Assembly (NCBI GenBank): GCA_963422395.1
Contig: OY729431.1
Span: forward strand, 2,016,001-2,080,000
DNA length: 64,000 nucleotides
DNA from: Vicinamibacteria bacterium
GTDB lineage: Bacteria > Acidobacteriota > Vicinamibacteria > Marinacidobacterales > Marinacidobacteraceae
Direction of reading: 5' to 3'
Positions 3 through 35,191 of the stretch are shown here, one piece after another; position 1 is the stretch's first letter, and every line of letters starts with the position of its first letter. The position numbers and the translations under genes are program-made. The notes under the pieces are model-generated. The model searched no databases. It had not been told where the DNA came from and saw nothing but the letters and a program-made list of their open reading frames with translations.

Positions 3-1175
3 TGGGAGCATGTGGATGTGGGGCTGGCGGACGGTTTCCTGCTGCGTGAGTACCGGCGTTCGCTCCGAGGCCGGGCTTCGCCGCCCTGCGGCAAGCCGGT
101 CTCGATGCAGGTCCACCACACGAACGCCCGCGCCGCCCGTGCCGACGACCGCCGGCTGGTCTGCTACCACTGCGGGGTGGCCTGCGACCTCGCCGGGATG
201 CGGTCCGAGCGGATCGCCTTCCTCCAAGAGCTCGGGGCCGAAGCTCCACGGACGGCCCCGGCGGCGGAAGTTCGGCTGCCGGTCGTCGGCGCCGCGGCCC
301 CGCCTTCGTCGGGTTCCGGGGCGCGCCGCCGCCCCACTCCGCCGGCCCGGGCGCCCCAGGGGGATGCGGTCTGCTACCGCGCCCGCTTCGAGAAGTTCGG
401 TCCGATGGCGCTTCGGGGCCACGGGGAACTCCTTCGGGTCCTGCCTCGGGTGCTGCGCCGGGCGGGGTTGCCGCTCCGCTTCAGCGAAGGCTTCTCACCG
501 CGTCCGAAGCTCAGTTTCGGCCCCGCGCTGCCGCTCGGCATCCAGTCGCTGGCCGAATACTGCGAGTTCGTGCTGATCGGGAACGCCCCGCCGTCCGCAG
601 TGCTCGCGGCGCTCCGCCGAGCTTCCGAACCAGGGCTTCGGTTCACCGAACTCGTCCGGGTCGAACCGGGAGTGCCGCGGCTCTCGCGGTGGGCCTCCGC
701 ACTGCGCTACGCGGTGCTGCTCGCCGCAGACGCCGATCCGGTGGAGATCGAATCCCGCCTCTCGGCCTTCCGCGCAAGCGATTCCTGGCCCATCGTCCTG
801 ACCCGTCGGGTAAAACCGGGAGCCAGGCGGCGCAGCCCCGCTTCTCGCTCGGCGGCCCCGCGAGAACGAACCGTCGAGCAGGACCTCCACCGCTTCGTGG
901 ACGAGGTTCTCCTCGCACCCGCAGGGCCGGAAGCGGCGCTCTTCGGCTGCTCTGCCGAGCGTGCGACGCTGCGCTTTCGCACCGTGCTCCCCGGCGGCGG
1001 GCCGACGCCGCGCCCGGACGAGATCACCCACTCGCTGCTCGGCTTCGAGCCAGTGGCACCGGAGATCCTCCGCACCGCCTGCGAACCGGCCGACGCCGCC
1101 TCTGCGAGTTCTCCGGCGGGATCCCCCACCCCGCAACCCAGATGCTCAGCAGCGCCTGCCGCGGAATCGGGATGA
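3..1175 (+). CDS. C-terminal part of a TIGR03960-type B12-binding radical SAM protein fused to a TIGR03936 (DUF2344) radical SAM-linked domain; 5' truncated by the window
   Basis: Frame open from the window edge: WEHVDVG..FLLREY, CYHCGVAC, then the DUF2344-like stretch RRAGLPLRFSEGFSPRPKLSFGPALPLGIQSLAEY. Confidence 0.8.
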   Translation, partial: WEHVDVGLADGFLLREYRRSLRGRASPPCGKPVSMQVHHTNARAARADDRRLVCYHCGVACDLAGMRSERIAFLQELGAEAPRTAPAAEVRLPVVGAAAPPSSGSGARRRPTPPARAPQGDAVCYRARFEKFGPMALRGHGELLRVLPRVLRRAGLPLRFSEGFSPRPKLSFGPALPLGIQSLAEYCEFVLIGNAPPSAVLAALRRASEPGLRFTELVRVEPGVPRLSRWASALRYAVLLAADADPVEIESRLSAFRASDSWPIVLTRRVKPGARRRSPASRSAAPRERTVEQDLHRFVDEVLLAPAGPEAALFGCSAERATLRFRTVLPGGGPTPRPDEITHSLLGFEPVAPEILRTACEPADAASASSPAGSPTPQPRCSAAPAAESG

Positions 1176-2269
1176 GACGGGCACTCTCGGCCGGGCGCGA
1201 GGCGGTCGCGCTGCCGGGGGCGGAACGGTCCGGCGATCGAAGCCGCCCTCCCGACGCCTCCTTGCCACCCGGAAACTGCAGCGAGCTCGACAAGCTCGAG
1301 GGACCCCTCGGGGGGAGGGTTCGCCCGCCGCCGATCAGCGCTCGGAACTTCGGCGGAATCACGGTTCCCCACCCCTTTCCGTATCAGGGCAGCAAGCGGA
1401 GCATCGCCCGCCACATCCTTCCGCACTTCCCGCGATCCATCGGCAGTCTGATCGAACCCTTCTGCGGATCCGCGGCGCTCTCCATCGCCGCCGTGTCCCA
1501 CGGGCTTGCCGAGAGAGTCTGGCTGAACGATGTCAACGCGCCGCTCATCAGGCTATGGGGCGAGATCCTGGAAAACCCCGAGAGACTCGCTGCAGGCTAC
1601 GGAGCGCTGTGGAACGAGCAGCGCGCCGATCGCAAGCAGTTCTTCCTCCGGATCCGAAGGGAGTTCAACGAGACTCATGAAACGCATCATCTCCTCTACC
1701 TGCTGGCGCGCATCGTGAAAGGATCCATTCGTTACGGCCGGGACGGCCGCTTCAACCAGAGTCCGGACAACCGCCGGGCGGGAATGCGGCCGGCAACGAT
1801 GCGGCGGCAGATCCTGGGAGTCTCGAATCGTCTCTCCGGAAGAACGAGACTCACGGCTTCGGACTACCGGATGGTGGCGGCCCAGGCAGCGGCGGAGGAT
1901 CTGGTGTACCTGGATCCTCCGTACCAAGGCACTTCCTCTTCTCGCGACCAACGCTACTACAGTGGTGTCGGGTATGGAGAATTGGTGGGGACACTTCAGG
2001 AGATGAATGCCGCGGGGATTTCCTTCATCGTCAGTTACGACGGTCGAACCGGGAACAAGGATCACGGAAGATCCCTTCCGGAGGAGCTGTCGCTCACCAG
2101 GCTTCCCATTCGATCCGGGGTGTCGAGCCAGTCTGTTTTGTTGGGAAACGCTTCCGAGACGATCGAGTCTCTCTATCTTTCTCCCGCCCTCAGGTCCCGC
2201 CTCGACAGCGGAGAGGAGCGGGGACACCGCCGAAGGGGCGCGGCTCACGCCCACTCTTTGTTCGCATGA
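1172..2269 (+). CDS. Dam/D12-family N6-adenine DNA methyltransferase of a Type II R-M pair
   Basis: PYQGSKR, motif I LIEPFCGSAA, catalytic LVYLDPPY. ATG at 1172 overlaps the upstream stop (ATGA). The conserved domain begins only near 1360, so the start is uncertain. Confidence 0.88.
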   Translation: MRRALSAGREAVALPGAERSGDRSRPPDASLPPGNCSELDKLEGPLGGRVRPPPISARNFGGITVPHPFPYQGSKRSIARHILPHFPRSIGSLIEPFCGSAALSIAAVSHGLAERVWLNDVNAPLIRLWGEILENPERLAAGYGALWNEQRADRKQFFLRIRREFNETHETHHLLYLLARIVKGSIRYGRDGRFNQSPDNRRAGMRPATMRRQILGVSNRLSGRTRLTASDYRMVAAQAAAEDLVYLDPPYQGTSSSRDQRYYSGVGYGELVGTLQEMNAAGISFIVSYDGRTGNKDHGRSLPEELSLTRLPIRSGVSSQSVLLGNASETIESLYLSPALRSRLDSGEERGHRRRGAAHAHSLFA

Positions 2270-2994
2270 GCGAACGAAATCTTCCAGAAGCCTTCCGCAG
2301 GCTTCTGGAGGCAGTAGATGCCAAGAGGCCTCGAACGGTAATCCAGCATCTTCTGAAGCATGGGCAGATAACGACCGAAGACCTGCAGACCAGGTATGGA
2401 TACAACCATCCGCCGAGAGCGATCCGAGATGTGCGGGAGCTGGGAATCCCGATCGATACCTTCCGGGTGACCGGATCGGATGGCAGGAGTATTGCGGCGT
2501 ACAGATTTGGCGATCCGAAACAGGTGCGCGCAGCACTGATGGGACGCACCGCATTCGCTGCTGGCTTGAAAAACGAACTCCTGGAGAATCCCGGTACGCG
2601 CTGCAATATCTATCTCGAAGAATTTCCTGCTCAGGAGCTGCAGATCGATCATCGAATTCCCTTCGAGATCGCCGGCGATCACCCAGCATCCGCGGATCCC
2701 GACCGATACCTGCTCCTGTGCGCCTCGGCGAACCGGGCGAAGTCATGGAGCTGTGAGCACTGCACGAACTGGAAGCAGAAAGACCCGAAAATCTGCAAGT
2801 CCTGTTATTGGGCCTATCCAGAGGAATATACCCATGTCGCCATGCGCGAGATCCGCCGTCTCGACATTCTCTGGCGAGACGACGAAATCTCCGACTACGA
2901 AAATCTTCGGAAGGTTTCCTCGATAGCTCGACAGGAGATTCCGGAATATGTGAAGAGCGTGCTGCGGAAAATCTTTTCGGGAAAGGAGAGCTGA
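2266..2994 (+). CDS. HNH-type Type II restriction endonuclease, SphI-like
   Basis: N-terminal HTH-like YNHPPRAIRD, HNH core LQIDHRIPF...LCASANRAKSWSCEHC and CKSC. ATGA overlap with the MTase and visibly lower GC. The resemblance to R.SphI is from recall of that sequence. Confidence 0.78.
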   Translation: MSERNLPEAFRRLLEAVDAKRPRTVIQHLLKHGQITTEDLQTRYGYNHPPRAIRDVRELGIPIDTFRVTGSDGRSIAAYRFGDPKQVRAALMGRTAFAAGLKNELLENPGTRCNIYLEEFPAQELQIDHRIPFEIAGDHPASADPDRYLLLCASANRAKSWSCEHCTNWKQKDPKICKSCYWAYPEEYTHVAMREIRRLDILWRDDEISDYENLRKVSSIARQEIPEYVKSVLRKIFSGKES

Positions 2995-4829
2995 TGACCA
3001 GGATCGGGGCCGACGATCGGTTCGCTGTGAAGATGCAGGGTCTTGCCGTTGCCGCGATGGCGATCGCGGCCGCTGCCGGATCGGTGTGTGCCGCCAGTGC
3101 AATGGAGCGCGACGAGCCGCTTCACGCGCTTTTCGATGAATTCATGGAGTTCCGGCGCCGTGAGGAGCCTCGCTTCGCGGCCTCGATCGACGGAATCCCT
3201 CCGGAGAGCCTCGGCCGGGTGACCGAAGTGCATGTCGCGAACCGAACTGCCATGGTCCGGGAGTTCCGGGACCGACTCCTGGAGATTCCCCATGAGCGGC
3301 TCTCGGACGAAGACCGCGTGCACCGCGATGTGTTCGAGGTGGCGCTTTCCGAAAGGATCGGCGACGCCCGGTTCGGCGCCCACTTCCTCCCCATCAACGC
3401 CGATTCGGGCTTCCACATCGGAATGGCGCGGCTCCCGCATTCGATCCCCCTGCGCGCTGCAGCGGATTACGAGGCGTATATCGCCCTGCTCCTCGACATC
3501 CCGCGTTACTTCGATGAATACATCGCCCTGATGCGGCGGGGGATCGAACTGGGTATGACGGTCCCCGGCATCGTCCTCGAGGGATATGAGGGCACGATCA
3601 CCAGTCATGTGGTCGAGGACCCCGAAGCGAGCGTTTTCTTCGCGCCCTTCGATGCCTTCCCCGAGCGGATCGGCGAGGCAGATCGCGGGCGGCTCCGCTC
3701 CGCTGGCGCAGCAGCAGTGAGAGAAGGCCCGATATCCGCTTACCGATCCTTTCTCGACTTCTTCGAGAACGAATACCGCCCTGCGGCCCGAACTACGATC
3801 GCCGCGTCGGACCTGCCGGCAGGAGAAGAGTACTACGCATTCCTCATCGGTCGGTTCACCACTCTCGACCGGACAGCCGAGGAAATCCACCGAATCGGCC
3901 TCGAAGAAGTGGAGCGCATCCGCGGCGAGATGGATCAGGCGATGCGCGCCACCGGTTTTCGCGGGGAATGGGACGCCTTCCTGGAGTTCCTGCGTACCGA
4001 TCCCCGCTTCTATGTGGAGACTCCCGAAGAGCTGCTGCGAGAAGCGGCATGGATCGTGAAACGGATGGACGGTGCGCTGCCGCGCCTGTTCCGCCAGCTG
4101 CCCCGCCAGCCCTACACCGTGGAGCCGGTGCCGGACGCCATCGCGCCGAAGTACACCGGTGGTCGCTATGTGGGAGCCCCACTCGCCTCCACGCAGCCGG
4201 GTCGCTACTGGGTGAATACCTACCGGGTCGAAAGTCGTCCGCTCTATACCCTCGAAGCGCTCTCTCTCCACGAAGCGGTCCCCGGCCATCACTTGCAGAT
4301 CTCGCTCGCCAAAGAGCTCGAAATGCCTGCGTTTCGCCGGCACTTCGGGATCGGCGCATACAGCGAGGGCTGGGCGCTCTATTCGGAGCGGCTCGGCCTC
4401 GAGGCGGGCTTCTACGAAGATCCCTACCGCAATTTCGGCCGACTGACCTACGAGATGTGGCGTGCCTGCCGACTGGTGGTGGACACCGGAATGCACGCTC
4501 TCGGCTGGACCCGCCAGCAAGCCCTCGACTACCTCGCCGCAAACACCGCGCTCTCGCTCCACGAGATCACTACCGAGACCGACCGCTATATCGCTTGGCC
4601 GGGGCAAGCGCTCGGCTACAAGATGGGTGAGCTCAAGATCCGTGAAATGCGCGCACTCGCCGAGGCCGCGTTGGGGGAGGACTTCGACATCCGCGAGTTC
4701 CACCACCAGGTTCTCTCGAATGGTCCGGTGACTCTCCCGATCCTCGACCGCCTCCTCCGGACCTGGATCTCGGAGCGTTCCACTTCGGAAGCACCAGAGC
4801 CCCTCGGGGATGGAGATCGCGGTGACTAG
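2994..4829 (+). CDS. DUF885 family exported protein (metallopeptidase-like HExxxxH)
   Basis: AAGGAG RBS and TGATG overlap; signal-like Ala-rich N-terminus; LHEAVPGHHLQ, EGWALYSE, RACRLVVDTGMH, PGQALGYKMG. Confidence 0.92.
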   Translation: MTRIGADDRFAVKMQGLAVAAMAIAAAAGSVCAASAMERDEPLHALFDEFMEFRRREEPRFAASIDGIPPESLGRVTEVHVANRTAMVREFRDRLLEIPHERLSDEDRVHRDVFEVALSERIGDARFGAHFLPINADSGFHIGMARLPHSIPLRAAADYEAYIALLLDIPRYFDEYIALMRRGIELGMTVPGIVLEGYEGTITSHVVEDPEASVFFAPFDAFPERIGEADRGRLRSAGAAAVREGPISAYRSFLDFFENEYRPAARTTIAASDLPAGEEYYAFLIGRFTTLDRTAEEIHRIGLEEVERIRGEMDQAMRATGFRGEWDAFLEFLRTDPRFYVETPEELLREAAWIVKRMDGALPRLFRQLPRQPYTVEPVPDAIAPKYTGGRYVGAPLASTQPGRYWVNTYRVESRPLYTLEALSLHEAVPGHHLQISLAKELEMPAFRRHFGIGAYSEGWALYSERLGLEAGFYEDPYRNFGRLTYEMWRACRLVVDTGMHALGWTRQQALDYLAANTALSLHEITTETDRYIAWPGQALGYKMGELKIREMRALAEAALGEDFDIREFHHQVLSNGPVTLPILDRLLRTWISERSTSEAPEPLGDGDRGD

Positions 4830-4917
4830 AACCGGTCGGTTGCGCCGATACCGTACGACGATCTCGCTCGGGAGAGGCGCGTTTTCAGTTCGTGGAATCG
4901 GAACGGGAGCGATGGGG

Positions 4918-7900
4918 TCAGCGGTTTCCGGGGATCCTCCTTCCCGGCGTCCACGGGGCGCCCGCTGCTTCGAGGTCGGCTTCGAGCCGAGCCAGGTCTT
5001 CCTCGAGGAGTGAACGCAGCTCGATCCGGAGCGTCTCGAACTCTTCGCCAGCGATCCGCAGGCTCTCGCGCTGGGTATCGGTAGGCGTCTGCCGGGTGTC
5101 CCAGTGGCCGCCCGCGACCTGCGAAACCCGGCCGCGGATCGAGGGAGCGGCGGGGTGGTTGCGCGACCCTCGGGCGGGATCCCCGTTCAGACGCACTTCG
5201 AGCCCGGAGAGGGTTTCGAGGAGGCCGTCCAGGCGAGAGAAGACCGCCTCTGCGGCGCGGGGAGTGCGCTCGAGTGCTGCCCGCAAGTGGCGGAGACGTT
5301 CCCGTATGCGGCTGGCCTCGGCTCCGGCGCCCAGCACCTGCCGCAGCAGCGCGGCGGTTTCGGACTGAAACGCGGCGACTGCCGCCGGATCGGTTCCCTC
5401 GGGAAGGTTCGGCACCGGTTTCACCCGGAACCGCTGCGGTTCACCGAGATTTCGGACGCCGCTGCTGCTGACCGCGATCAGCTCCGCCTGGTACTCGCCC
5501 GGCGCCGCCAGCGGCCCCTGCGGAGGCCGCACCCACGGCGGAGTGAATCCGGGAGAGTCGAGACGCACCGGGTTCGGCGCCGGGCCACGCAGGTCCCAGG
5601 CGACCCGGTGGACGCCGTCCTCGGCGGGACCGGCGACCCGACGCACCGGCGCCCCGCGGTCGTCCCGGATCAGCAGGAAAACCGACGGGTCCGCTTCCAA
5701 CTCCTCCAGCCGCAGCGCGTCGAAGCCCGGAAACGGAATGTCCCGACCGGCTTCCCCGGCCTTCTTCTCGTCGGCGCGGCGCTTTTCGCGCGCCGTCTGG
5801 AGTTCCTCGCTGAGGTAGTAGGTGAACACCGCGCCGAACGGCGGGTTGGCAGCCGCATAGGCGGTGCTCCCCTGCGTCGGGCGTCCCGGAGCCTGCGCCG
5901 GCACGGACGGGATATACCACCACGCGTCGCGCGCCGGGAAGAGGGTGGATTCGCCGGAGCGGACCGCGGCGGCGAGGCTCCGGAGCGGGGCGTAGTCGTC
6001 CAGGATGAAGAAGCCGCGCCCGAAGGAAGCGCCGACGAGGTCGTCATCGCGGCGCTGCAGTTCCAGGTCGCGGAAAGCGATCGTCGGAGCGCCCGGCAGC
6101 CGGACCCAGTGTTCCCCGCGGTTCCACGACACATAGAGCCCGTTCTCGGCGGCCAGGAACAGGAGAGCCGGTTCCACATCGTCCTGTTCGATCGCCCAGA
6201 CGATCACCCCTTCGGGGAGGTCACCGCCGATCGACCGCCAGCTCGTTCCCCGGTCGCGGCTCTCGTAGAGATACGCGTCGAAATCGCCCATCTTGTGGTT
6301 GTCCGCCGCCACGAAGACGGTATCGGCGTCGTGCTGCGACGCCTCCACATCGTTGATGAAGGAAAGCGCCGGCAATCCGGGGAACGAGCCCACCGGCTCC
6401 CACGAACCGCCGCCGTCGCCGCTGCGGTGCACCAAGCCGTCGTCGCTGCCGGCATAGAGAACGCCGGCGGCGACCGGCGACTCGCTGATCGCGGTGAGGG
6501 TCGCATAGCGGGACATCGCTGCGGTGTCGTGGAGGTCGTCCACGCTCCACACCCGGTCGTAGAAGGGCAGCTCGTAGCGGTTGCGGCCGGTGGTCAGATC
6601 ACCGCTGGCCGCAGCCCACGACTGGCCCCGGTCCTCGCTCCGCCAGACTCGCTGGGATCCATACCAGAGGTGGTCGGGGTCATGCGGACTGAGAAGGAGA
6701 GGCGCGTCCCAGTTCCATCGCTCGGGCGGCTCTCCAGGCGCCGGCAGCGGCTGGAGGTGGAGCACTTCGCCGCTCCGGCGGTCGGCTCGCTGCAAGTTGC
6801 CCTGTTGGGTCATCAGATAGAGGATCTTCGGATCGCGCGGATCGATCTGGACACCGTAGCCGTCGGCCCCGAGAGGCACATACCAGTCCCGGTTTCGGAT
6901 CCCCTCCAGGTTCAGCGTGCGGGAAGGGCCATGCACCGTACCGAGATCCTGCGCCCCGCCGAGCAGGTCGTAGAAGGGCTCGGCATCGCTCAGTGCCACC
7001 TTGTAGAACTGGGAGATCGGCAGGTTCGGGAAGTGGCGCCAACTCGCACCCTCGTCGAAGGTCTCGTAGAGCCCGGCGTCGGTGCCCGCGAGCAGGTGGG
7101 CGTGGTCTTCGGGGTCGATCCAGAGCGCGTGGTTGTCGCTGTGCTTCTCGCGTCCGGTTCCGAGGGGGGAGAAGGTCCGGCCGCCGTCGCGGGTCACATG
7201 CAAGAAGACATCCATCTGGTACACGAGATCGGGATCCGTGGAGGACGCCTCGATCTCCTGGTAGTAGTGGGGGCCGGTCCCGCCGGAGAGGTAGGGACTC
7301 TGCCGCTCCCAGCTCTCGCCGAGGTCCAGGGAGCGGTAGAAGCCCCGCACTTCTTCTTCGGCTTCGATCGTCGCATAGAGCCGGCTAGGGTCCGCGGCGG
7401 TCACCGCGAGTCCGATCTTGCCCACCTGTCCCTCGGGAAGCCCGCGGGAGATCCGGCGGAAACTGCGGCCTCCGTCGGACGACTTGTAGATTCCGGAGCC
7501 GGGACCCCCGGCCAGGAACGACCAGACATGCCGGCGCCGCTGGTAGGTCGCCGCATAGACGGTGTCCGGGTCGCCGGGGGCGAACTCGAGATCCGTCGCC
7601 CCGGTGTCCGGCCCGGAATCGAGCACCAGGGTCCAGTGCGCTCCCCCGTCTTCGGTCCGGTACACCCCCCGCTCCCCGCCGCTGTTCCAGAGCGGACCCT
7701 CCGCCGCCACCAGCACGGTGTCTCCATCGCGCGGGTCCACCAGGATCTTTCCGATGTGCTGCGAGCCGGCGAGCCCCATCCGTTCCCACGAACCGCCGCC
7801 GTCCCGGCTCCGGTACACCCCGTCGCCCCAGCCGACATGCCGCCCGCTCACATTCTCGCCGGTGCCGAGCCAGACGACCTCCGGATTCGAGGGGTCGAGG

Positions 7901-26056: not shown

Positions 26057-28354
26057 GTGTCGGCGCGCCAGATCGCGCCCGGCGGGATCAGACCCGGCCT
26101 TCGAGGCCGGGCCGGACCCTCCCGGCAGCGGTCGGACCGCGGGTATCGAGTTCGAGTGCCGCGGCGCGGCGCCTTCGCCTCGCCCGCCCACAACGCCAAC
26201 GGAACACCGCCTGCGGGTCCGGCCCCCACCAGGGCCGGCGCCCCGCTGCTGTTCCCTAGAACGCCCGCGATCGAAGACATCCTTTCTCGAACCCCCCCGG
26301 GGTCGCCCGCATCCGAACCGAGTTCGGAGATCCGGTCCAGCACGGATTCCCATTCGCTCAGCACGGGTATCGGCCGCGGTCTGCGCACACTCGCTCGTTC
26401 CTGGCCGGGGAGGATTCTGCTGGCGGTGGGGGGGGTATGGGCGCTTTCCTGGACGGGCGCCCTTCCGACAGCCTGGACGGGGGATGCCGGACTGGTGTTC
26501 GGGCTCACCCTCGCTGCGGTCTTGCTCTACTTCGGCCGCGATCTGCTGCGCTGGCTGCTCTATCCCGTTCGGCGCAAGCTGACCATCTCCTACCTGTTCA
26601 TCGGGCTGCTGCCCGTCCTGCTGCTGACCCTCTTCTTCCTGCTCGCCTTCTATGTGGCGCTCGGCCAGTTCAGCTCCTATGCCCTCCAGGCGAACCTCAG
26701 CGCCCGGGGCGCAGCCCTGGCAGGAAGCGCCCGGCAGATCCTGATCGAGATCCCCGACGGAGCCGACGACCGGGAGACCGGGGCGGCCCTCGCGCGGGCG
26801 GCCGCCGGAATCAGTGATCTCGCTCCCGGGGCGGTGGCGTGGCGCCTCGAGCGGGACGACCGCCGGATCACCCGCTTCGCGGCTTCGGCGGCGAACGGCC
26901 CGATCTCGCCGACAGACCCGATTCCCGAATGGGCCGCCTCTCCCTATGAAGGCGTGGTCCTGATGAGGGGCGGAGAGTGGTTCGGCGCCATGGTTCCGGA
27001 CGACGAAGGCCGCCGCCTCGCCGCCGTGCTGGCGCCCCTGGAGCCGCTCCTGCTTTCGAGCACCCGCGAAGAGGACCTGAACCTCCGGAGTACCTGGACC
27101 CTTTCCCTCGAAGACAGAGACGGGGAACCGTCGGCGCCTCGGATCACGGCGGGTGCCGACGACGGCCGACTCTCCATCCCCTGGATCGACAGCCTGCTGC
27201 TCGAAGCAGACCCGTGGCATCCCGGGCTCCAGGGCGGACGAGTGATCGTCTCTTTCGGCTTCGCGCCGATCCACCTGATCCAGGGGACGACCAGCAGCTT
27301 GGCGGAACCGCTCGCAATCAACGATCCGGCGCTCGGCAGCAGCCTGCTCCTGCTCCTCGGCGGGCTGGGCATGGTCTTCATCCTGCTCGAGGGCGCCGCC
27401 CTCTCCATCGGAATCCGGCTGGCCCGCTCCATCACCCGGTCGGTGGAGACCCTGAGCCGCGGCACAGAGCGGGTGCGCAGCGGGAACTTCGGCCATCAGG
27501 TCCGGGTAGCGTCGAGGGACCAACTCGGGGAGCTCGCCAGTTCCTTCAACATCATGACCGCCAAGATCGCGGACGACATGGGGCGCTTGCGCCGGGCGGC
27601 GGTCCTCGAACAGGAGATGGAGACCGCCCGAGCTTCCCAGGCACGCCTCCTGCCTCCGGAAGGTTCGGTGTCGGTCCCGGGCTTCCTGGTGTCCGCCGTT
27701 TGCCGCCCCGCAGCGCAGGTGGGAGGCGACTACTACGACCTGCTCCCGCTCGGACCCCGGCGCCTCGGCGTGGTGATCGCCGATGTCGCGGGAACCGGCA
27801 CCCGCGCGGCGTTCTACATGGCGGAGCTGAAGGGACTCATCCTCGCGCTGAGCCGAACCTACGAGTCTCCACGAAGAGTGCTCACCGAAGCGAACCGGGT
27901 CCTCCACGACACCCTCGACTCGCGCACCTTCATCACCATCACCTACGCGGTCTTCGACTCCGAGGCCCGCCTCGTGACTTTTGCGCGTGCCGGGCACAGC
28001 CCTCTTCTCCACCTGAGTCGGGAAGACGGTTCGTGGCCCCGTTCCGAGGCACTGGCCCCCGCAGGGCTCGGACTCGCGCTGGATCCGGGCCCCCTGTTCG
28101 AATCCATTCTCGAGGAGTGCTCCCTGCCACTCCACCCAGGAGAAATATGGCTCTTGTTCACCGACGGCGTCTCGGAAGCGATGAACGCAGAATCGGAAAT
28201 GTTCGGCGAGGAGCGGCTCATGCGGCTCCTCGAAGAGAACGCCGCGCTCCCGCCGGCGGAATTGCAGCGAACCCTCGAGGACGCCGTCTTGCAGTTCACC
28301 GGCGCGGAGGCCCACGCCGACGATCTGACGATGGTCCTCGTCCGGGTGGACTGA
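26057..28354 (+). CDS. Membrane HAMP + SpoIIE/PP2C (RsbU-like) serine phosphatase
   Basis: TM helices; HAMP ARSITRSVETL..DQLGELASSFNIM; VGGDYYD, IADVAGTG, RAGH, FTDGVSEA, DDLTMV. The true start is probably downstream of 26057. Confidence 0.88.
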   Translation: MSARQIAPGGIRPGLRGRAGPSRQRSDRGYRVRVPRRGAFASPAHNANGTPPAGPAPTRAGAPLLFPRTPAIEDILSRTPPGSPASEPSSEIRSSTDSHSLSTGIGRGLRTLARSWPGRILLAVGGVWALSWTGALPTAWTGDAGLVFGLTLAAVLLYFGRDLLRWLLYPVRRKLTISYLFIGLLPVLLLTLFFLLAFYVALGQFSSYALQANLSARGAALAGSARQILIEIPDGADDRETGAALARAAAGISDLAPGAVAWRLERDDRRITRFAASAANGPISPTDPIPEWAASPYEGVVLMRGGEWFGAMVPDDEGRRLAAVLAPLEPLLLSSTREEDLNLRSTWTLSLEDRDGEPSAPRITAGADDGRLSIPWIDSLLLEADPWHPGLQGGRVIVSFGFAPIHLIQGTTSSLAEPLAINDPALGSSLLLLLGGLGMVFILLEGAALSIGIRLARSITRSVETLSRGTERVRSGNFGHQVRVASRDQLGELASSFNIMTAKIADDMGRLRRAAVLEQEMETARASQARLLPPEGSVSVPGFLVSAVCRPAAQVGGDYYDLLPLGPRRLGVVIADVAGTGTRAAFYMAELKGLILALSRTYESPRRVLTEANRVLHDTLDSRTFITITYAVFDSEARLVTFARAGHSPLLHLSREDGSWPRSEALAPAGLGLALDPGPLFESILEECSLPLHPGEIWLLFTDGVSEAMNAESEMFGEERLMRLLEENAALPPAELQRTLEDAVLQFTGAEAHADDLTMVLVRVD

Positions 28355-28355
28355 G

Positions 28356-30002
28356 ATGAGCCGGTCCAGGCAAAGGCGCCGCTCCGTTCCGCTGGCGGTC
28401 CACCGACCGGCGGCGGAATTCGCACGCGCCCTCGGCTATCGTTTCCGCAAGGTGCGCCGGCTCGAGGAGGCGCTCACCCACGGTTCCTACCGCAACGACC
28501 ACGATGTCGCCGACTACGAACGGCTCGAGTTCCTCGGCGATGCGGCGCTCGGTCTCGTCGTCACCGAAGCCATGCATTTCCAGCGGCCCGGCTGGCCGGC
28601 GAACCGGCGGCAGGACACCAAGTCGGAAGTGGTCAGCAACCAATCGCTCGCCGGCGCGGCGCGCTCCCTCTCCCTCGAAGAGGGAATCCGCGTGGGGCGC
28701 GGCCGCAGCGCCGGCGAGGCGGTCCGCTCCTCGGACCGGATCCTGGCCAATGTGTTCGAGGCAGTACTGGGCGCTGCGTACCTCGACGGAGGAATCCCGG
28801 CTGCACGCGGCATCGTGGGAACAGCGTTCCGCAGAGAATTCGCAAAGCTGGGCCTTCGGCCGCCGGCGGGGGCCGAGGGATGGTGGCGCCGCTCCTTCGT
28901 CCGGCTCTCCACGCTTCCCCGCCTGCTCGTGCGGGCGATGCGTCGGCTGCTCTTTTCGAGGAGCTCGCGGGAACGGTCGCTTCGCTACACCTTCGCCAGC
29001 CCGCCGCTGCTCCGCGCCGCCCTCGACGGCACTCCGGAGACGCCCCGGCGCTCGAGCGGCTCTCGTCGCGGTGGAAGGCGGCGCGGCGGAAGATCGCGGG
29101 GCGGTGCCCCCCGCCGGGGAAGACCCCCGGCTCACCGGACCGGAGCGCCGGGACAACAGGCGCTTCGTTTTCTCGGGCGCGATGCCATGCATCTCGTGGT
29201 CGCCGACGCCCTGCACCGCGATTTCCCCGACTGGGACGAGGGACGGCTGACCCTCGCCCGGATGCGCCTCCAAGAACGCGAATTCACCACCCGCATGTGC
29301 CGGCACTGGTCCCTCGAAGGCGAAACCGCCGCTGCCGAAGCCGAAGCGATCGTGGGCGCGCTCTATCTCGACGGCCGGCTGCCGGCGGTCCGGCGTGCCC
29401 TCGGCCAGCCGTTCCGCGAGGCGCTCGAGGACCTGCGGAATCCGGACCTCGAACTCCTGGACCCCAAGACCCTGCTCCAGAACCGGCTCGCGCAGTCCGG
29501 CCGCGAAGCCCCCCGCTACGAGATCCGCAAGCCGGGAGAGGGCGCGCGCCAGAGCGGGGAGATCGCGGTCACACTGCGCCTCGAAAACGGCATCGAGACG
29601 ATCGGTCGCGGGCGTGGACTGAAAGAGGCGGAGAAGGACGCCGCCGGGCGCGCGCTCGACCGCTTGGACGGCGGGGCCGGTCCGGAACCCGCCCGGGAGC
29701 GGAGATCCGGTGCTCAGCCGGCAGCCCAGCCGGTCCCCGGGCGGGCGGACGGCTCTTCCAGGCCCGCGGCGGGGACAGCCGGTCGCCCCGACAACCCGAA
29801 GGGCGCGCTACAGGAGGCGCTGGTGAAACAGGAGGGACGCCTCCCGGTGTACCGGCTCATCGCGGAAAGCGGGCCGGACCACGAAAAGAACTATGTGGTG
29901 GAGGTGCTCTCCGGGCAACGGCGCCTCGGCACCGGTTCCGGACGCAACAAGCGGACGGCGGAGGCCGAAGCGGCAGCGGCGGCGCTGGAGTCCGGAATCT
30001 GA
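28356..30002 (+). CDS. rnc: Ribonuclease III family protein with two RNase III domains and two dsRNA-binding domains
   Basis: ALTHGS..YERLEFLGDA..FEAVLGAAYLDGG; second degenerate domain QALRFLGRD..DEGRLT..EAIVGALYLDG; dsRBD1 DPKTLLQ..KEAEKDAA; dsRBD2 NPKGALQE..GPDHEK..KRTAEAEAA. Confidence 0.85.
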   Translation: MSRSRQRRRSVPLAVHRPAAEFARALGYRFRKVRRLEEALTHGSYRNDHDVADYERLEFLGDAALGLVVTEAMHFQRPGWPANRRQDTKSEVVSNQSLAGAARSLSLEEGIRVGRGRSAGEAVRSSDRILANVFEAVLGAAYLDGGIPAARGIVGTAFRREFAKLGLRPPAGAEGWWRRSFVRLSTLPRLLVRAMRRLLFSRSSRERSLRYTFASPPLLRAALDGTPETPRRSSGSRRGGRRRGGRSRGGAPRRGRPPAHRTGAPGQQALRFLGRDAMHLVVADALHRDFPDWDEGRLTLARMRLQEREFTTRMCRHWSLEGETAAAEAEAIVGALYLDGRLPAVRRALGQPFREALEDLRNPDLELLDPKTLLQNRLAQSGREAPRYEIRKPGEGARQSGEIAVTLRLENGIETIGRGRGLKEAEKDAAGRALDRLDGGAGPEPARERRSGAQPAAQPVPGRADGSSRPAAGTAGRPDNPKGALQEALVKQEGRLPVYRLIAESGPDHEKNYVVEVLSGQRRLGTGSGRNKRTAEAEAAAAALESGI

Positions 30003-30087
30003 TGCCTTCCGGATCCGCCCCTATACTCCCGCTGCAACCCGGTACCGGCGGCGGCCGGGAGCCTGCCCCTCGGGAACACGAAGCGAA

Positions 30088-32905: not shown

Positions 32906-35191
32906 ATGCAGCACGCAGCGAGAACGAAGAACGGGAGCCACTGGCGGCAGAGCGCCGCATTCGTGGCGTTGGCGCTCGGCCTGCCGGCCGGCGCGGCGGC
33001 GCAGGGAGTCGAGCAGACCGCGCGCTCCTACGCCTACGGGAACCTCAGCCATGTCGAAGGCGATGTCTGGCATCAGCGCGCCGACGATTTCGGCGCTCAC
33101 GAGGCCGAGACGAACAGCCCGTTCCTGCCGGGCGACCGCATCTGGACGCGCGAACCGGGCCTGGTCGAGATCCGTCTCGCGGGACGGATCACGGCCTGGA
33201 TAGAAGAAGGAACGAAGCTCGACTATGTCGAGGGGGACAACCCGCATCGGTTCGGCTTCTGGACCGGCAGCCTCGTCGTGGCCGTGGACGGCGACTCCGA
33301 GATCGTGGTCGAAACCCCCGGCGGGACGCTGTCTCCGCAGGGCCGGGGCGAGTATCGGGCCGACCTGCTCAAGGACGGCCGCACGGTGCAGTTCGTCGTC
33401 CACGACGGGATCGCCACCGTGTCCACCGAATGGGGATCGGTGCTGGTCGGGGCCGGACAGCGCACCCTGGGCAGCGAAGGCACCGCTCCGGCGCCGGTGG
33501 AGGAATACCGAGGGCATGACGATTTCTCCGACGATTTCATGGCCTGGATCGAATCCCGGCAGGAATGGCGCGACCGCGCGGCACACACCCCCGCAGACGA
33601 CCTGCCTCAGGAAGTGCGCGAACATGCGCGCGACCTGCACGGGCACGGCCGCTGGCATCAGAATAGTCATCTCGGCTGGGTCTGGTATCCGACGGTTTCT
33701 GCTGGCTGGGCACCGTACCGGCTCGGGCGCTGGGCGCACACGCCGTTCGGCTATACCTGGATCTCGTACGACACTTGGGGCTGGGCGCCATTCCATTACG
33801 GGAGCTGGGGGCACGGCCCCTTCGGCTGGTACTGGATCCCGGGGTCCCTCTGGTCGCCGGGCTGGGTTTCCTGGTCCTATGGGCCGAGCTGGGTCGGCTG
33901 GGCACCGCTCGGCTACTACGGGCGGCCGGTGTACGACTTCTGGGGCTACGACGAGGACTACGCCTTGGGGAATCCCGGGCACGGGCTCCGTCGAGGACAG
34001 GTCCTCGGGAAGGCCGTCCGCCGCGGCTCTGCCATCAACCGGCAGGCCTGGAGCTTCACGGAACGGAGCGCGATCGGACGGCCCGCTTCCCGAAACCGGC
34101 TGGCCGCCTCCTCGCTGCGCAATGTCGAAGCGGCACGCGTGCTCTCCCGGGGAGCGACCCTCGACCGCAATCTGCAGCAACGCGCGGTGGGGTCCACCGG
34201 AATGATTCGTTCTGCCAAGGCAACCTCTCGCCGTCTCGCCAACTCACGGAACGCTGTGGCTGGGGGAGCGGCAGCGGCCGGACGAAGCACGACCCGCGCC
34301 CAGCGCGTGGCGGTGCCGTCGCGGGCTATCCGGGCCCGATCGAACCGGATGAACCGGACGAATCGCGAATCCGAAAGAGGCTCCACGGCCTTGGCAGAGA
34401 AAACGGTCCGCAGGGGGGCGGCCCAGAGTGGAACTGCCCAGAACCGCACGGGGCGCGCCGACGGAGGAGCCGGGGCCGCCGTGCGCCGGGGCGCTGTTCC
34501 CCGGCGACCGGGCGCCCGACCGGCAGCTCGATCGGAGCGGAGCCGGCCGCCGCGGCCGAGAGCGGCGGGATCGGGCACGCGACGGCCGTCTTCGGTGCGG
34601 CCCAGCAGCGGCTCCTCCCGCAGTCGGCCCAGCGGCAGCTCCTCCCGCAGCCGACCCAGCGGCAGCGCCTCCAGAAGCCGACCCAGCAGCGGCGCCTCCA
34701 GAAGCCGACCCAGCAGCGGCGCCTCCAGAAGCCGACCCAGCAGCGGCGCCTCCAGAAGCCGGCCCAGCAGCACCTCCAGAAGCCGGCCCAGCAGCACCTC
34801 CAGAAGCCGACCCAGCAGCGCCTCCAGAAGCCGGCCCAGCAGCACCTCCAGAAGCCGGCCCAGCAGCACCCCCAGAAGCCGACCCAGCAGCGCCCCCAGA
34901 AGCCGGCCCAGCAGCACCTCCAGAAGCCGGCCCAGCAGCACCTCCAGAAGCCGGCCCAGCAGCACCTCCAGAAGCCGGCCCAGCAGCACCCCCAGAAGCC
35001 GGCCCAGCAGCACCCCCGGAAGCCGGCCCAGCAGCACCCCCGGAAGCCGGCCCAGCAGCACCTCCAGAAGCCGGCCCAGCAGCACCCCCAGAAGCCGGTC
35101 CAGCAGCGGCAGCCGATCCAGTGCCGGGAGCCGCTCCAGCGGCAACTCTGGCAGTCGGTCCAGCAGCACCCGGCGCCGTCGTCCGAACTAG
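32906..35191 (+). CDS. Exported FecR-like + DUF6600 domain protein with a long Ser/Arg-rich repeat tail
   Basis: Signal peptide; NSPFLPGDRIWT, VETPGG, GEYRAD; Trp-rich GWAPYRLGRW..WGWAPFHYGSW..WIPG; C-terminal (PSSTSRSR)n. Confidence 0.8.
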   Translation: MQHAARTKNGSHWRQSAAFVALALGLPAGAAAQGVEQTARSYAYGNLSHVEGDVWHQRADDFGAHEAETNSPFLPGDRIWTREPGLVEIRLAGRITAWIEEGTKLDYVEGDNPHRFGFWTGSLVVAVDGDSEIVVETPGGTLSPQGRGEYRADLLKDGRTVQFVVHDGIATVSTEWGSVLVGAGQRTLGSEGTAPAPVEEYRGHDDFSDDFMAWIESRQEWRDRAAHTPADDLPQEVREHARDLHGHGRWHQNSHLGWVWYPTVSAGWAPYRLGRWAHTPFGYTWISYDTWGWAPFHYGSWGHGPFGWYWIPGSLWSPGWVSWSYGPSWVGWAPLGYYGRPVYDFWGYDEDYALGNPGHGLRRGQVLGKAVRRGSAINRQAWSFTERSAIGRPASRNRLAASSLRNVEAARVLSRGATLDRNLQQRAVGSTGMIRSAKATSRRLANSRNAVAGGAAAAGRSTTRAQRVAVPSRAIRARSNRMNRTNRESERGSTALAEKTVRRGAAQSGTAQNRTGRADGGAGAAVRRGAVPRRPGARPAARSERSRPPRPRAAGSGTRRPSSVRPSSGSSRSRPSGSSSRSRPSGSASRSRPSSGASRSRPSSGASRSRPSSGASRSRPSSTSRSRPSSTSRSRPSSASRSRPSSTSRSRPSSTPRSRPSSAPRSRPSSTSRSRPSSTSRSRPSSTSRSRPSSTPRSRPSSTPGSRPSSTPGSRPSSTSRSRPSSTPRSRSSSGSRSSAGSRSSGNSGSRSSSTRRRRPN
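34601..35098 (+). repeat. Coding tandem repeat: 6 x 27-bp units followed by 14 x 24-bp units
   Basis: 27-bp consensus CCCAGCAGCGGCGCCTCCAGAAGCCGA (34601-34762), then 24-bp consensus CCCAGCAGCACCTCCAGAAGCCGG (34763-35098); no spacers. Confidence 0.95.

Follow-up and report, generated by a model that had tools for sequence, protein, structure and literature searches.

The locus and the 548-residue protein

The window analysed here is a stretch of 64,000 nucleotides from contig OY729431.1 of a Vicinamibacteria bacterium. It contains an ORF at 28356..30002 on the forward strand that encodes a protein of 548 amino acids and is free of internal stops, in agreement with the initial annotation, and whose start abuts the stop of a phosphatase gene. 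The features are, in window coordinates:

26057..28354, + strand: gene for a HAMP + SpoIIE (PP2C-type) phosphatase, putative start (PF07228 141.8 bits, PF00672 43.9 bits)
28356..30002, + strand: whole gene (P0001), tandem RNase III of 548 amino acids (ORF; TIGR02191)
28407..28859, + strand: RIIID-a, residues 18–168, catalytically competent by sequence (PF14622)
28860..28961, + strand: a–b linker, residues 169–202, with two helices (176–185 and 187–198) in the AF2 model
28962..29447, + strand: RIIID-b, residues 203–364, degenerate nuclease domain (PF00636)
29040..29141, + strand: Arg/Gly-rich disordered insert in RIIID-b, residues 229–262 (pLDDT < 50)
29451..29675, + strand: dsRBD1, residues 366–440, diverged (PF00035 27.3 bits)
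29676..29786, + strand: disordered linker between dsRBD1 and dsRBD2, residues 441–477 (pLDDT 33–34)
29787..29999, + strand: dsRBD2, residues 478–548, canonical and well conserved (PF00035 58.2 bits)

The protein matches TIGR02191 with 233.8 bits, above the cut-off of 166.25, a score that is summed over three separate pieces corresponding to profile positions 2–143, 34–219 and 150–217. The second of these pieces covers RIIID-b and dsRBD1. Pfam and NCBIfam profile searches return the chain order RIIID-a, RIIID-b, dsRBD1, dsRBD2, and they agree with the description of the protein as one intact RIIID and one degenerate RIIID followed by two C-terminal dsRBDs. The motifs quoted for these domains (ERLEFLGD, QALRFLGR, ILANVFEA, FPDWDEGRLT and EAIVGALYLDG) are all in place. 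At E values up to 1, Pfam returns RNase III and dsRBD families alone: a PAZ, platform, helicase or other N-terminal module is absent, and a zinc-finger or PUF match was not found.

The whole gene is spanned by single 9.7 kb contigs in two sequencing runs, X1 and X4, both from study P1. The X1 contig is near-identical to the gene of the genome, and this run may be the source of the assembly. The X4 contig differs from the gene by four letters and by an in-frame 12-nucleotide insertion behind 29714, in the linker 441–477, so that the differences inside the gene are all in-frame; a 3-nucleotide deletion at 30046 lies downstream of the stop of the tandem gene. In runs X5 and X6, which belong to two further studies, the gene is covered in pieces only. 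One low-depth X5 contig leaves out 29001–29325 (depth 2, side 20), which we regard as noise.

An intact and a degenerate half

RIIID-a is recognized by PF14622 with 92.8 bits over residues 36–156. Its signature ERLEFLGD (residues 55–62, nucleotides 28518–28541) holds E55, E58 and D62, while ILANVFEA holds N132 and E135. Among 70 homologues, E55 and E58 are found in 69 rows (one gap) and D62, N132 and E135 in all 70, and F59 is likewise retained. The closest single-domain structures are the nuclease domains of bacterial RNase III (Z about 20, rmsd 1.8–2.1 Å), and the dN/dS value of the domain is 0.06 (13 genomes of one genus). In Aquifex RNase III, E40, D44, D107 and E110 bind two Mg ions (PMC3867540). 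The corresponding set of bacterial metal-binding acids (E41, D45, D114 and E117 in E. coli numbering) is present in domain a, with N132 in place of D114. Asn132 stands where the E. coli and Aquifex enzymes have an aspartate (D114/D107), and we considered whether it marks domain a as dead. This was rejected: the only rnc of the sister families, an ordinary one, also has Asn at this position, and so do 25 of 132 canonical representatives (Asp in 90, other residues in 17). The positions of E58, D62 and E135 are invariant among these 132. The earlier description of domain a as intact therefore holds for the acids E55, E58, D62 and E135 and is amended only at Asn132, a common and harmless variant.

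At the other end of the chain, the PF00035 match of dsRBD2 extends over residues 481–545 and includes the GPDH and NKRTAE motifs. Its dN/dS value is 0.04–0.05 in the same 13 genomes, and a dsRBD profile made from the sister families scores dsRBD2 at 51.4 bits versus 9.7 bits for dsRBD1.

RIIID-b is matched by PF00636 with 36.5 bits (cut-off 27) over about residues 268–323, corresponding to profile positions 1–56 of 102 only. In its signature QALRFLGR (residues 268–275, nucleotides 29157–29180) Arg271 and Arg275 fall at the alignment positions where canonical enzymes have the Glu and Asp of the signature. The initial annotation had pointed out arginine at both catalytic acid positions, and this is an invariant feature: R271 and R275, together with E330, are conserved in 70/70 full-length homologues. 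The D114-equivalent position 327 is Ala here and A, G, P or S among homologues, and with R271, R275 and A327 three of the four metal-binding positions are replaced. The E117-equivalent E330 is retained and an invariant D276 adjoins R275, so that some residual metal binding by RIIID-b is conceivable. The alignments further show that the RBM4 loop is deleted, that the 'DEG' motif is kept (E295 and G296) and that the FLG interface motif and the long helix are kept under strong constraint. Outside the insert, the domain has pLDDT values of 88–97 in the AF2 model. For the 13 genomes, dN/dS is 0.12 for the RIIID-b core, 0.16–0.17 for dsRBD1 and 0.3–0.67 for the linkers. RIIID-b is maintained by purifying selection.

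The Arg/Gly-rich insert of RIIID-b is found in 70/70 homologues. Taken over the wider residues 226–265, it has a median length of 39 residues (range 15–70) with an Arg + Lys fraction of 0.30 and a Gly fraction of 0.20; its dN/dS value is 0.52 (13 genomes). dsRBD1 (PF00035 cut-off 23, about residues 369–436) follows RIIID-b directly, joined to it by a 'DPKTLLQ' junction that resembles the canonical one. The linker between a and b has blocks of pLDDT 68–92, a length of 31–39 residues in the 70 homologues and a dN/dS value of 0.29, while the linker 441–477 varies between 18 and 136 residues with a dN/dS value of 0.67. Both dsRBDs are C-terminal, as was annotated, and this part of the description stands; the layout itself is better read as nesting, a-[b-dsRBD1]-dsRBD2, with a conserved pair on the outside and a degenerate one within it.

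Predicted pairing of the two RIIIDs and relation to known enzymes

The AF2 model of the 548-residue protein (mean pLDDT 80.3, pTM 0.66) superposes onto Drosha (PDB chain 5b16_A) with Z 27.2 and an rmsd of 4.6 Å over 308 residues, corresponding to model residues 12–366 and including both RIIIDs. The match to Dicer in the dicing state (7yyn_A) has Z 26.7 and an rmsd of 4.6 Å over 355 residues (model residues 6–441) and extends to dsRBD1. The best chain with a single RIIID reaches Z 20.5 over 143 residues. When a and b are modelled as separate chains, an ipSAE of 0.88 is obtained (best of three controls 0.00; the ipSAE mark used is reached by 58/80 solved complexes and 2/110 mismatched pairs), although these values and those of the AF2 model may be high because the predictors have learned the solved structures of RNase III dimers, Dicer and Drosha. 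The runs of the a:b complex have at least 70% of their contacts in common, and the partner has a pLDDT of at least 75. Two predictors, through the Drosha/Dicer superposition and the ipSAE of 0.88, thus support the intramolecular a:b pseudo-dimer that had been proposed. With Z 26–27 over 308–355 residues in the superpositions, RIIID-a and RIIID-b are predicted to form a Drosha/Dicer-like intramolecular pair.

The glutamate of the 'EG' motif is present in 128/132 canonical representatives. It is lost in a (A82) and invariant in b (E295, followed by G296). In the predicted interface, residues 293–296 of b contact chain a, while residues 82 and 85–86 of a contact chain b. The helices run antiparallel, with a59 contacting b283–298 and a70 contacting b273, from which we infer that b 293–296 are near a 55–59 and that a 82–86 are near b 265–269. 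In solved RNase III structures, E64/E65 of the partner subunit lie beside the active site. Together with the complementary degeneration of the two domains, these proximities suggest that the retained acids would cluster around one centre and the lost ones around the other. The complementary 'EG' pattern is absent from four other tandem proteins examined.

In reviews, bacterial RNase III is a homodimer whose chains have one RIIID each, and tandem RIIIDs are regarded as eukaryotic, as in Drosha, Dicer and RNC1 (PMC3867540). We found no description of bacterial tandem-RIIID enzymes in the full-text literature searched, in which subscription journals are thinly covered. Compared with the bacterial class-1 enzyme Rnc (TIGR02191), the tandem gene occupies the same locus behind HAMP–SpoIIE, and its RIIID-a and dsRBD2 have canonical sequences; the two-metal chemistry and the cellular tasks are presumably alike. 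However, Rnc is a homodimer of chains of about 230–260 residues with one RIIID and one dsRBD each, whereas here two RIIIDs and two dsRBDs are joined in one chain of 548 residues that, judged from its residues, is left with a single catalytic centre. Mini-III, which consists of a RIIID without a dsRBD, differs from it by the two dsRBDs.

As in Drosha and Dicer, which provide the best structural matches (5b16_A and 7yyn_A), the two RIIIDs of the chain are predicted to pack against each other, and a dsRBD comes after RIIID-b; in the model it overlies that of Dicer in the dicing state. The likeness to a tandem pseudo-dimer comes from prediction. In contrast to those enzymes, in which both RIIIDs are active (PMC3867540), the second RIIID is dead here, and the tandem protein has a second dsRBD and no PAZ, helicase or platform: the Drosha and Dicer residues outside the RIIID–dsRBD parts have no counterpart in the model. 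Plant chloroplast RNC1 also has tandem RIIIDs, which are catalytically silent and would be expected to associate with each other and form a fold that binds dsRNA (PMC3867540); whereas both RNC1 domains are silent, domain a keeps all of the essential residues and belongs to the only RNase III of the cell.

[quoted passage not shown] The pairing of a competent with a non-catalytic RIIID is common to both systems, here on the grounds of residue identity and predicted contacts. The editosome partners are separate polypeptides of a large complex; they carry zinc fingers and PUF/RAM motifs and lack dsRBDs, whereas here the two halves are in one bacterial chain with two dsRBDs. An RNase III heterodimer in which one subunit is dead nicks dsRNA, and engineered E. 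coli heterodimers of this type have one live and one dead site, a state like that predicted for the tandem protein (both from PMC3867540). Those are laboratory point mutants of two chains, whereas the present case is natural, fused and extensively remodelled.

Distribution, origin and proposed mode of action

A second RNase III-like gene was not found in the 2.9 Mb genome, in which PF14622 and PF00035 match nowhere else; the search for a separate canonical rnc leaves the tandem gene as the sole RNase III-like gene. By tblastn, 14 of the 15 canonical rnc loci examined, from sister families and from elsewhere in the phylum, have the HAMP–SpoIIE gene as a neighbour of rnc. The tandem form is present in 28/28 genomes of one GTDB family, several of them single-contig, and in 0/27 genomes of the rest of the order (two sister families, 0/8 and 0/19), while an ordinary single rnc is found in 15/16 genomes of the sister families. 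With a common locus and only one copy, the gene behaves as the orthologue of the rnc of its relatives. Throughout the family, the tandem gene has taken the place of rnc at the ancestral locus, and it is not an oddity of one genome. A search for domain b in 400 other genomes of the phylum gives six weak matches; three were inspected and are ordinary single-RIIID genes, and the other three are open frames of 286–329 amino acids.

In a tree computed without eukaryotic sequences, a (support 99), b (100, stem 1.75) and the canonical domains (99) form separate clades whose mutual order the tree does not give, and the duplication within the lineage is therefore deduced from synteny and distribution. 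The tandem form most likely arose independently of Drosha and Dicer, since only one bacterial family has it, among close relatives that are canonical.

The reading that we favour, and consider rather probable as a whole, is that bacterial rnc was expanded in place in the common ancestor of a single acidobacterial family and now encodes an RNase III pseudo-dimer in one chain, whose sole catalytic centre cuts one strand each time the enzyme binds. RIIID-a and dsRBD2 on the outside form the canonical part and retain the catalytic residues; RIIID-b and dsRBD1 on the inside would be a degenerate copy in which metal binding (with Arg in place of both signature acids and Ala or Gly in place of the third acid) would be gone, as is RBM4. 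Within one chain, a is predicted to pack on b through antiparallel signature helices, as do the subunits of bacterial RNase III or the RIIIDs of Drosha and Dicer. This would create one dsRNA-binding valley with a single two-metal centre, located in a, so that one strand would be hydrolysed per binding event. The dead second site and the published heterodimer work suggest that the enzyme probably nicks in this manner. The Arg-lined dead site of b, the Arg/Gly-rich loop and dsRBD1 would keep the uncut strand in place and set the orientation of the substrate, and double cuts would require a second binding in the opposite orientation. One active site need not leave a nick, as two successive bindings could produce staggered double cuts.

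As the only RNase III of the cell, the enzyme presumably handles the usual processing of pre-rRNA and mRNA. The rrn operon has the standard layout 16S-tRNA-tRNA-23S-5S. For the pre-rRNA stems, the energies of the flanking duplexes are not clearly above those of shuffled sequences (16S, −109.5 versus −100.5 ± 7.6; 23S, −93.9 versus −77.0 ± 6.0). A stricter version, that of a monomeric strand-selective dsRNA nickase in which the Arg-lined half of b, the basic loop and dsRBD1 fix the orientation such that one defined strand is cut, is a tentative proposal that we would not expect to hold. If true, it would entail asymmetric pre-rRNA and mRNA processing in this acidobacterial family and a convergent bacterial re-run of the transition from homodimeric RNase III to the Drosha/Dicer intramolecular dimer.

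Other arrangements have to be weighed against a single-site pseudo-dimer. The protein might dimerize through domain a (a:a, perhaps with b:b, or as a domain-swapped a:b′ dimer), giving two sites and ordinary double cuts, with b and dsRBD1 as an added RNA-binding or regulatory module. Canonical RIIIDs indeed homodimerize through the helix that is kept in a (ERLEFLGD, F59), and a domain-swapped dimer is compatible with identical a:b contacts. Nevertheless, both predictors put b on the dimer surface of a with high confidence, which would block a:a, and the loss in a of a glutamate that is nearly universal in canonical enzymes and invariant in b fits a:b pairing, as does the strongly constrained interface helix with its FLG motif in b. 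We therefore regard dimerization through a as unlikely.

Slightly less probable still is that the a:b pair forms with an ordinary outcome, the single site cutting both strands by two opposite bindings in what is a neutral or stabilizing fusion of the dimer. The pseudo-symmetry of dsRNA and the usual layout of the rrn operon speak for it, as does the position of the enzyme in rnc's own locus, where as a replacement it must cover the tasks of rnc. Neutrality, however, is not expected to yield Arg at both metal positions in 70/70 homologues, a deleted RBM4 and a conserved basic loop, all in one half only. Moreover, all six degenerate RIIIDs examined in tandem proteins have Arg, Lys or His at one or more essential acid positions, which suggests selection for binding without cutting. 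That the long ORF is an artefact, whether an assembly chimera or a fusion of adjacent genes by sequencing error, is refuted and has a negligible probability: the frame is uninterrupted in every genome of the family, the tandem architecture is seen in 70 full-length protein clusters, the whole-gene contigs of two runs have only in-frame differences inside the gene, and selection acts at the codon level.

What is new is a whole bacterial family in which the only rnc is replaced by a fused live/dead form. The transition from homodimer to pseudo-dimer is thus possible in bacteria, and the family offers a tractable model for asymmetry after internal duplication, with complementary residue loss around one centre and basic residues in place of metal ligands. 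Should its product be a nick and not a double cut, the enzyme could be used as it stands as a single-chain nickase for dsRNA, and the question would arise how rRNA matures with one cut per binding.

Among 18 long bacterial RNase III matches that were scanned for the tandem form, 16 from outside the family were rejected, as each has only one RIIID, accompanied by extensions or foreign domains, and the two tandem proteins are family members with a third dsRBD. From the best 150 of 1.84 billion representatives, the ten with at least three matched stretches or an unusual length were scanned. Seven contain two RIIIDs and one (P0125) contains three, while P0131 and P0235 have a single RIIID and two dsRBDs. 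The prokaryote-like tandem-RIIID proteins P0122, P0183, P0147 and P0204/P0267 have one intact and one degenerate RIIID per chain, the latter with an essential acid replaced by a basic residue. They differ from the 548-residue protein in domain order and number of dsRBDs and are mostly singletons on short contigs. In a Bryobacterales MAG, P0204 follows a separate canonical rnc and is thus an extra paralogue there and not a replacement. The 'acid to base' dead domains of P0122, P0183, P0147, P0204 and P0125 hint at a repeatable evolutionary solution.

Selection on both an intact and a degenerate nuclease domain

The frame at window 28356-30002 (+) is a genuine ORF encoding the 548-residue protein P0001, and its translation agrees with the initial annotation in all motifs and coordinates. 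The anticipated two Ribonuclease_3 and two dsrm stretches are found by a Pfam scan. TIGR02191, the NCBIfam RNase III equivalog, matches P0001 with 233.8 bits in three pieces (profile 2-143, 34-219 and 150-217), so that the order is RIIID-a, a contiguous unit of RIIID-b and dsRBD1, and dsRBD2.

Domains of P0001: Pfam match; score against the sister-family profile; dN/dS
RIIID-a: residues 36-156, PF14622, 92.8 bits (pieces scanned separately); 80.9 bits; 0.06
RIIID-b: residues about 268-323, PF00636, 36.5 bits (cut-off 27), first half of the profile only; about 21 bits in two fragments; 0.12 (core)
dsRBD1: PF00035, 27.3 bits over the entire profile (genome-wide scan); 9.7 bits; 0.16
dsRBD2: residues 481-545, 58 bits; 51.4 bits; 0.05
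Linkers and insert: dN/dS 0.29-0.67

A search of 5.8 billion proteins gave 73 family matches, some of them labelled as hypothetical proteins of 'Acidobacteria bacterium' MAGs. The fragments P0068, P0072 and P0073 were left out, leaving 70 full-length homologues with 47-65% identity. In domain a, Glu55 and Glu58 are found in 69 of these (one gap) and Asp62, Asn132 and Glu135 in all 70. The positions of Glu58, Asp62 and Glu135 are invariant in 132 canonical representatives, i.e. ordinary single-RIIID-dsRBD enzymes, where the Asn132 position is Asp in 90, Asn in 25 and another residue in 17; Asn also occurs here in the only rnc of the sister families. With the acids kept and Asn132 common in canonical enzymes, domain a passes as catalytically competent on all available sequence criteria.

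Domain b carries Arg271 and Arg275 at the two signature acids in 70/70 homologues, which extends the initial reading of this motif to the whole set. Its third acid position is Ala, Gly, Pro or Ser, and Glu330 is the sole acid retained. In alignments it lacks about 20 residues matching a loop of canonical enzymes known as RNA-binding motif 4, the role of which is described in PMC3074117. All 70 homologues have a disordered basic insert with a median length of 39 residues, of which Arg and Lys make up 30% and Gly 20%. Judged from the profile scores, the outer RIIID-a and dsRBD2 are the conserved 'protomer' and the inner RIIID-b and dsRBD1 the degenerate one. The dN/dS values, obtained from 13 genomes of one genus with 76-78 pairs per region, are low for the RIIID-b core and dsRBD1, a clear sign that purifying selection acts on the dead half.

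The N-terminus (window 28356-28406) is a conserved poly-Arg tail with the consensus M-x-RRRRRR. In 62 homologues, Arg and Lys account for a median of 47% of the first 15-17 residues, and the tail is a third basic element of P0001, probably a disordered one. A third dsRBD is seen in the family members P0054, P0056 and G008, the latter from another genus. These forms have 657-674 residues and three dsrm matches in Pfam, with four TIGR02191 pieces in G008.

Sole copy and distribution within the order

The genome is a single contig of 2,908,270 bases. Searched as a whole with TIGR02191, PF14622 and PF00035 it gives no match outside the P0001 gene, and the check for a separate canonical rnc thus finds none. 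Forty related genomes were compared, 24 from the same GTDB family (Marinacidobacteraceae; six further genera) and 16 from two sister families. In 24/24 family genomes a multi-piece TIGR02191 match in one open frame is the only hit (four pieces in G008, three in the others). Of the 16 sister-family genomes, 15 have a single full-length match of the ordinary kind, with open frames 254-453 residues long; the one without a match is 73% complete. The unpublished sister-family genome G033 (locus L011) is one row in the counts, the canonical profile and the tree, and no conclusion depends on it. Across 55 genomes of the order, a search with domain b hits 28/28 in the family (own genome included) and 0/8 and 0/19 in the sister families. 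Extended to another 400 genomes from the phylum, the search returned just six weak matches, of which three were inspected and proved to be ordinary genes with a single RIIID.

An artefactual origin of P0001 is rejected by its presence in 28/28 family genomes, the 70 full-length homologues and the read support sought by the initial annotation: the gene is covered from end to end by 9.7 kb contigs in two runs from the same study. The contig from run X4 is a strain variant in which 12 nt are inserted in frame at window 29714, within the disordered linker (441-477), and 3 nt are missing at 30046, just past the stop codon; the reading frame is kept. The contig of the other run may be the source of the genome itself.

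Genomes of the tandem-rnc family measure 2.7-4.9 Mb versus mostly 4.4-10.2 Mb in the sister families (one, 84% complete, has 2.8 Mb), and given this gap the family seems to have reduced genomes.

Predicted packing of the two nuclease domains

An AF2 model of P0001 was built from a 51-row alignment (mean pLDDT 80.3, pTM 0.66). All four domains, RIIIDs and dsRBDs alike, are modelled with confidence, and the insert and the linker at 441-477 come out as disordered. The best Foldseek matches are Drosha and Dicer chains. With a second structural aligner, residues 12-366 superpose on Drosha (5b16_A; Z 27.2, r.m.s.d. 4.6 Å, 308 residues) and residues 6-441 on dicing-state Dicer (7yyn_A; Z 26.7, r.m.s.d. 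4.6 Å, 355 residues), while the best single nuclease domain reaches Z 20.5 over 143 residues. Both RIIIDs and dsRBD1 are therefore placed as in the eukaryotic pseudo-dimers. When residues 12-200 (a) and 201-366 (b) are modelled as separate chains, the ipSAE is 0.88 (best of three controls 0.00), a mark reached by 58/80 solved complexes and 2/110 mismatched pairs. At least 70% of contacts are shared between runs, with a partner pLDDT of at least 75, and signature helices in an antiparallel arrangement account for the contacts listed (a59-60/b283-287, a67/b276-280 and a70/b273). Since RNase III dimers have been solved, the score may be owed to those known structures and speaks for likeness rather than binding. 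Together with the superpositions, it supports the intramolecular interface that the initial annotation had anticipated.

The Glu of an 'EG' pair downstream of the signature helix, present in 128/132 canonical enzymes, is absent from domain a (Ala82) and invariant in domain b (Glu295, Gly296). In solved structures, this Glu of the partner (Glu64 in the Aquifex structure of 2001) reportedly sits next to the active site. In the predicted interface b 293-296 contact chain a, and a 82 and 85-86 contact chain b. Antiparallel helix packing would bring b 293-296 near a 55-59 and a 82-86 near b 265-269, pairs absent from the contact list. On that reading, every acid around the centre of a would be kept, including the one supplied by b, and those around the centre of b would all be gone except Glu330, including the one supplied by a. 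A dimer of two P0001 chains through domain a would have this Glu at neither site. The pattern provides an independent, sequence-based argument for a:b pairing.

In the proposed mechanism, a and b would form an intramolecular dimer with dsRBD1 docked as in Dicer, and a single two-metal centre would cut one strand per binding. The review PMC3867540 describes nicking of dsRNA by RNase III heterodimers, the logic also proposed for the trypanosome KREN/KREPB pairs (PMC3867540, PMC9508840). The uncut strand is probably held by dsRBD1 together with the two Arg and the basic loop, and dsRBD2, on a tether of roughly 37 residues, would serve the active half. This functional reading of P0001 rests on prediction.

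P0001 resembles Drosha and Dicer in predicted geometry, and KREN/KREPB pairs and engineered heterodimers in site count, but is a member of neither group. By descent it is a bacterial rnc, but one that departs from the rule of one RIIID and a homodimer. Among the full texts searched, which cover few of the subscription journals, none describes bacterial tandem-RIIID enzymes. A whole bacterial family relying on a single-chain, half-dead RNase III would come as a surprise to specialists.

Other tandem proteins and the gene neighbourhood

Among 1.84 billion representatives there are 17,133 RNase III relatives, of which only five, two full-length and three fragmentary, belong to the family of P0001. 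Ten high-ranking ones, chosen for additional matched stretches or an atypical length, were scanned, and eight contain more than one RIIID.

Scanned proteins with several RIIIDs
P0122, P0183: active RIIID, dead RIIID, then one dsRBD
P0147, P0204: dead RIIID, then active RIIID
P0120: plain rnc-rnc fusion, both domains intact
P0125: three RIIID copies
P0178, P0123: both RIIIDs intact

Most are singletons on short contigs. None of the eight has the a-[b-dsRBD1]-dsRBD2 order or replaces rnc, and the four further tandem proteins examined lack the complementary 'EG' pattern. In 6/6 degenerate RIIIDs examined, Arg, Lys or His stands in for at least one essential acid. P0204 comes from a Bryobacterales MAG, straight after a separate canonical rnc. 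At locus L035 (2914-5238; Bryobacterales MAG), a canonical rnc (259-residue frame) is directly followed by a 499-residue paralogue. The latter comprises a dead RIIID, where Ala and Arg replace the signature acids and Arg the E117 equivalent, a dsRBD-like stretch that has degenerated and a second, intact RIIID. The two genes together line up three RIIIDs, an arrangement that seems to have arisen independently within the phylum.

Other genes noted in the window
26057-28354 (+): HAMP and SpoIIE-type (PP2C) phosphatase gene, directly upstream, its stop abutting the rnc start
32906-35191 (+): 761-residue DUF6600/FecR-like protein

In the family of P0001 the phosphatase gene directly precedes rnc, and by tblastn it adjoins canonical rnc in 14 of 15 loci (L004-L018) from sister and other families of the phylum, with alignments of at least 320 residues in 12 of them. 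This shared neighbour identifies the tandem gene as the resident rnc, enlarged in place. A functional link between phosphatase and RNase III is possible. In the metagenomic protein P0080 (690 residues), HAMP, SpoIIE, RIIID and dsRBD are all in one frame.

The genome has one 16S rRNA match and a standard 16S-tRNA-tRNA-23S-5S operon at G000:C1:297426-302809 (627-6010 of the 10-kb locus L034), where flank pairing is not clearly above shuffles. At the end of the DUF6600/FecR-like protein, a long series of almost identical units rich in Ser, Arg and Pro (SRSRPSS...) looks like a tandem-repeat tail.
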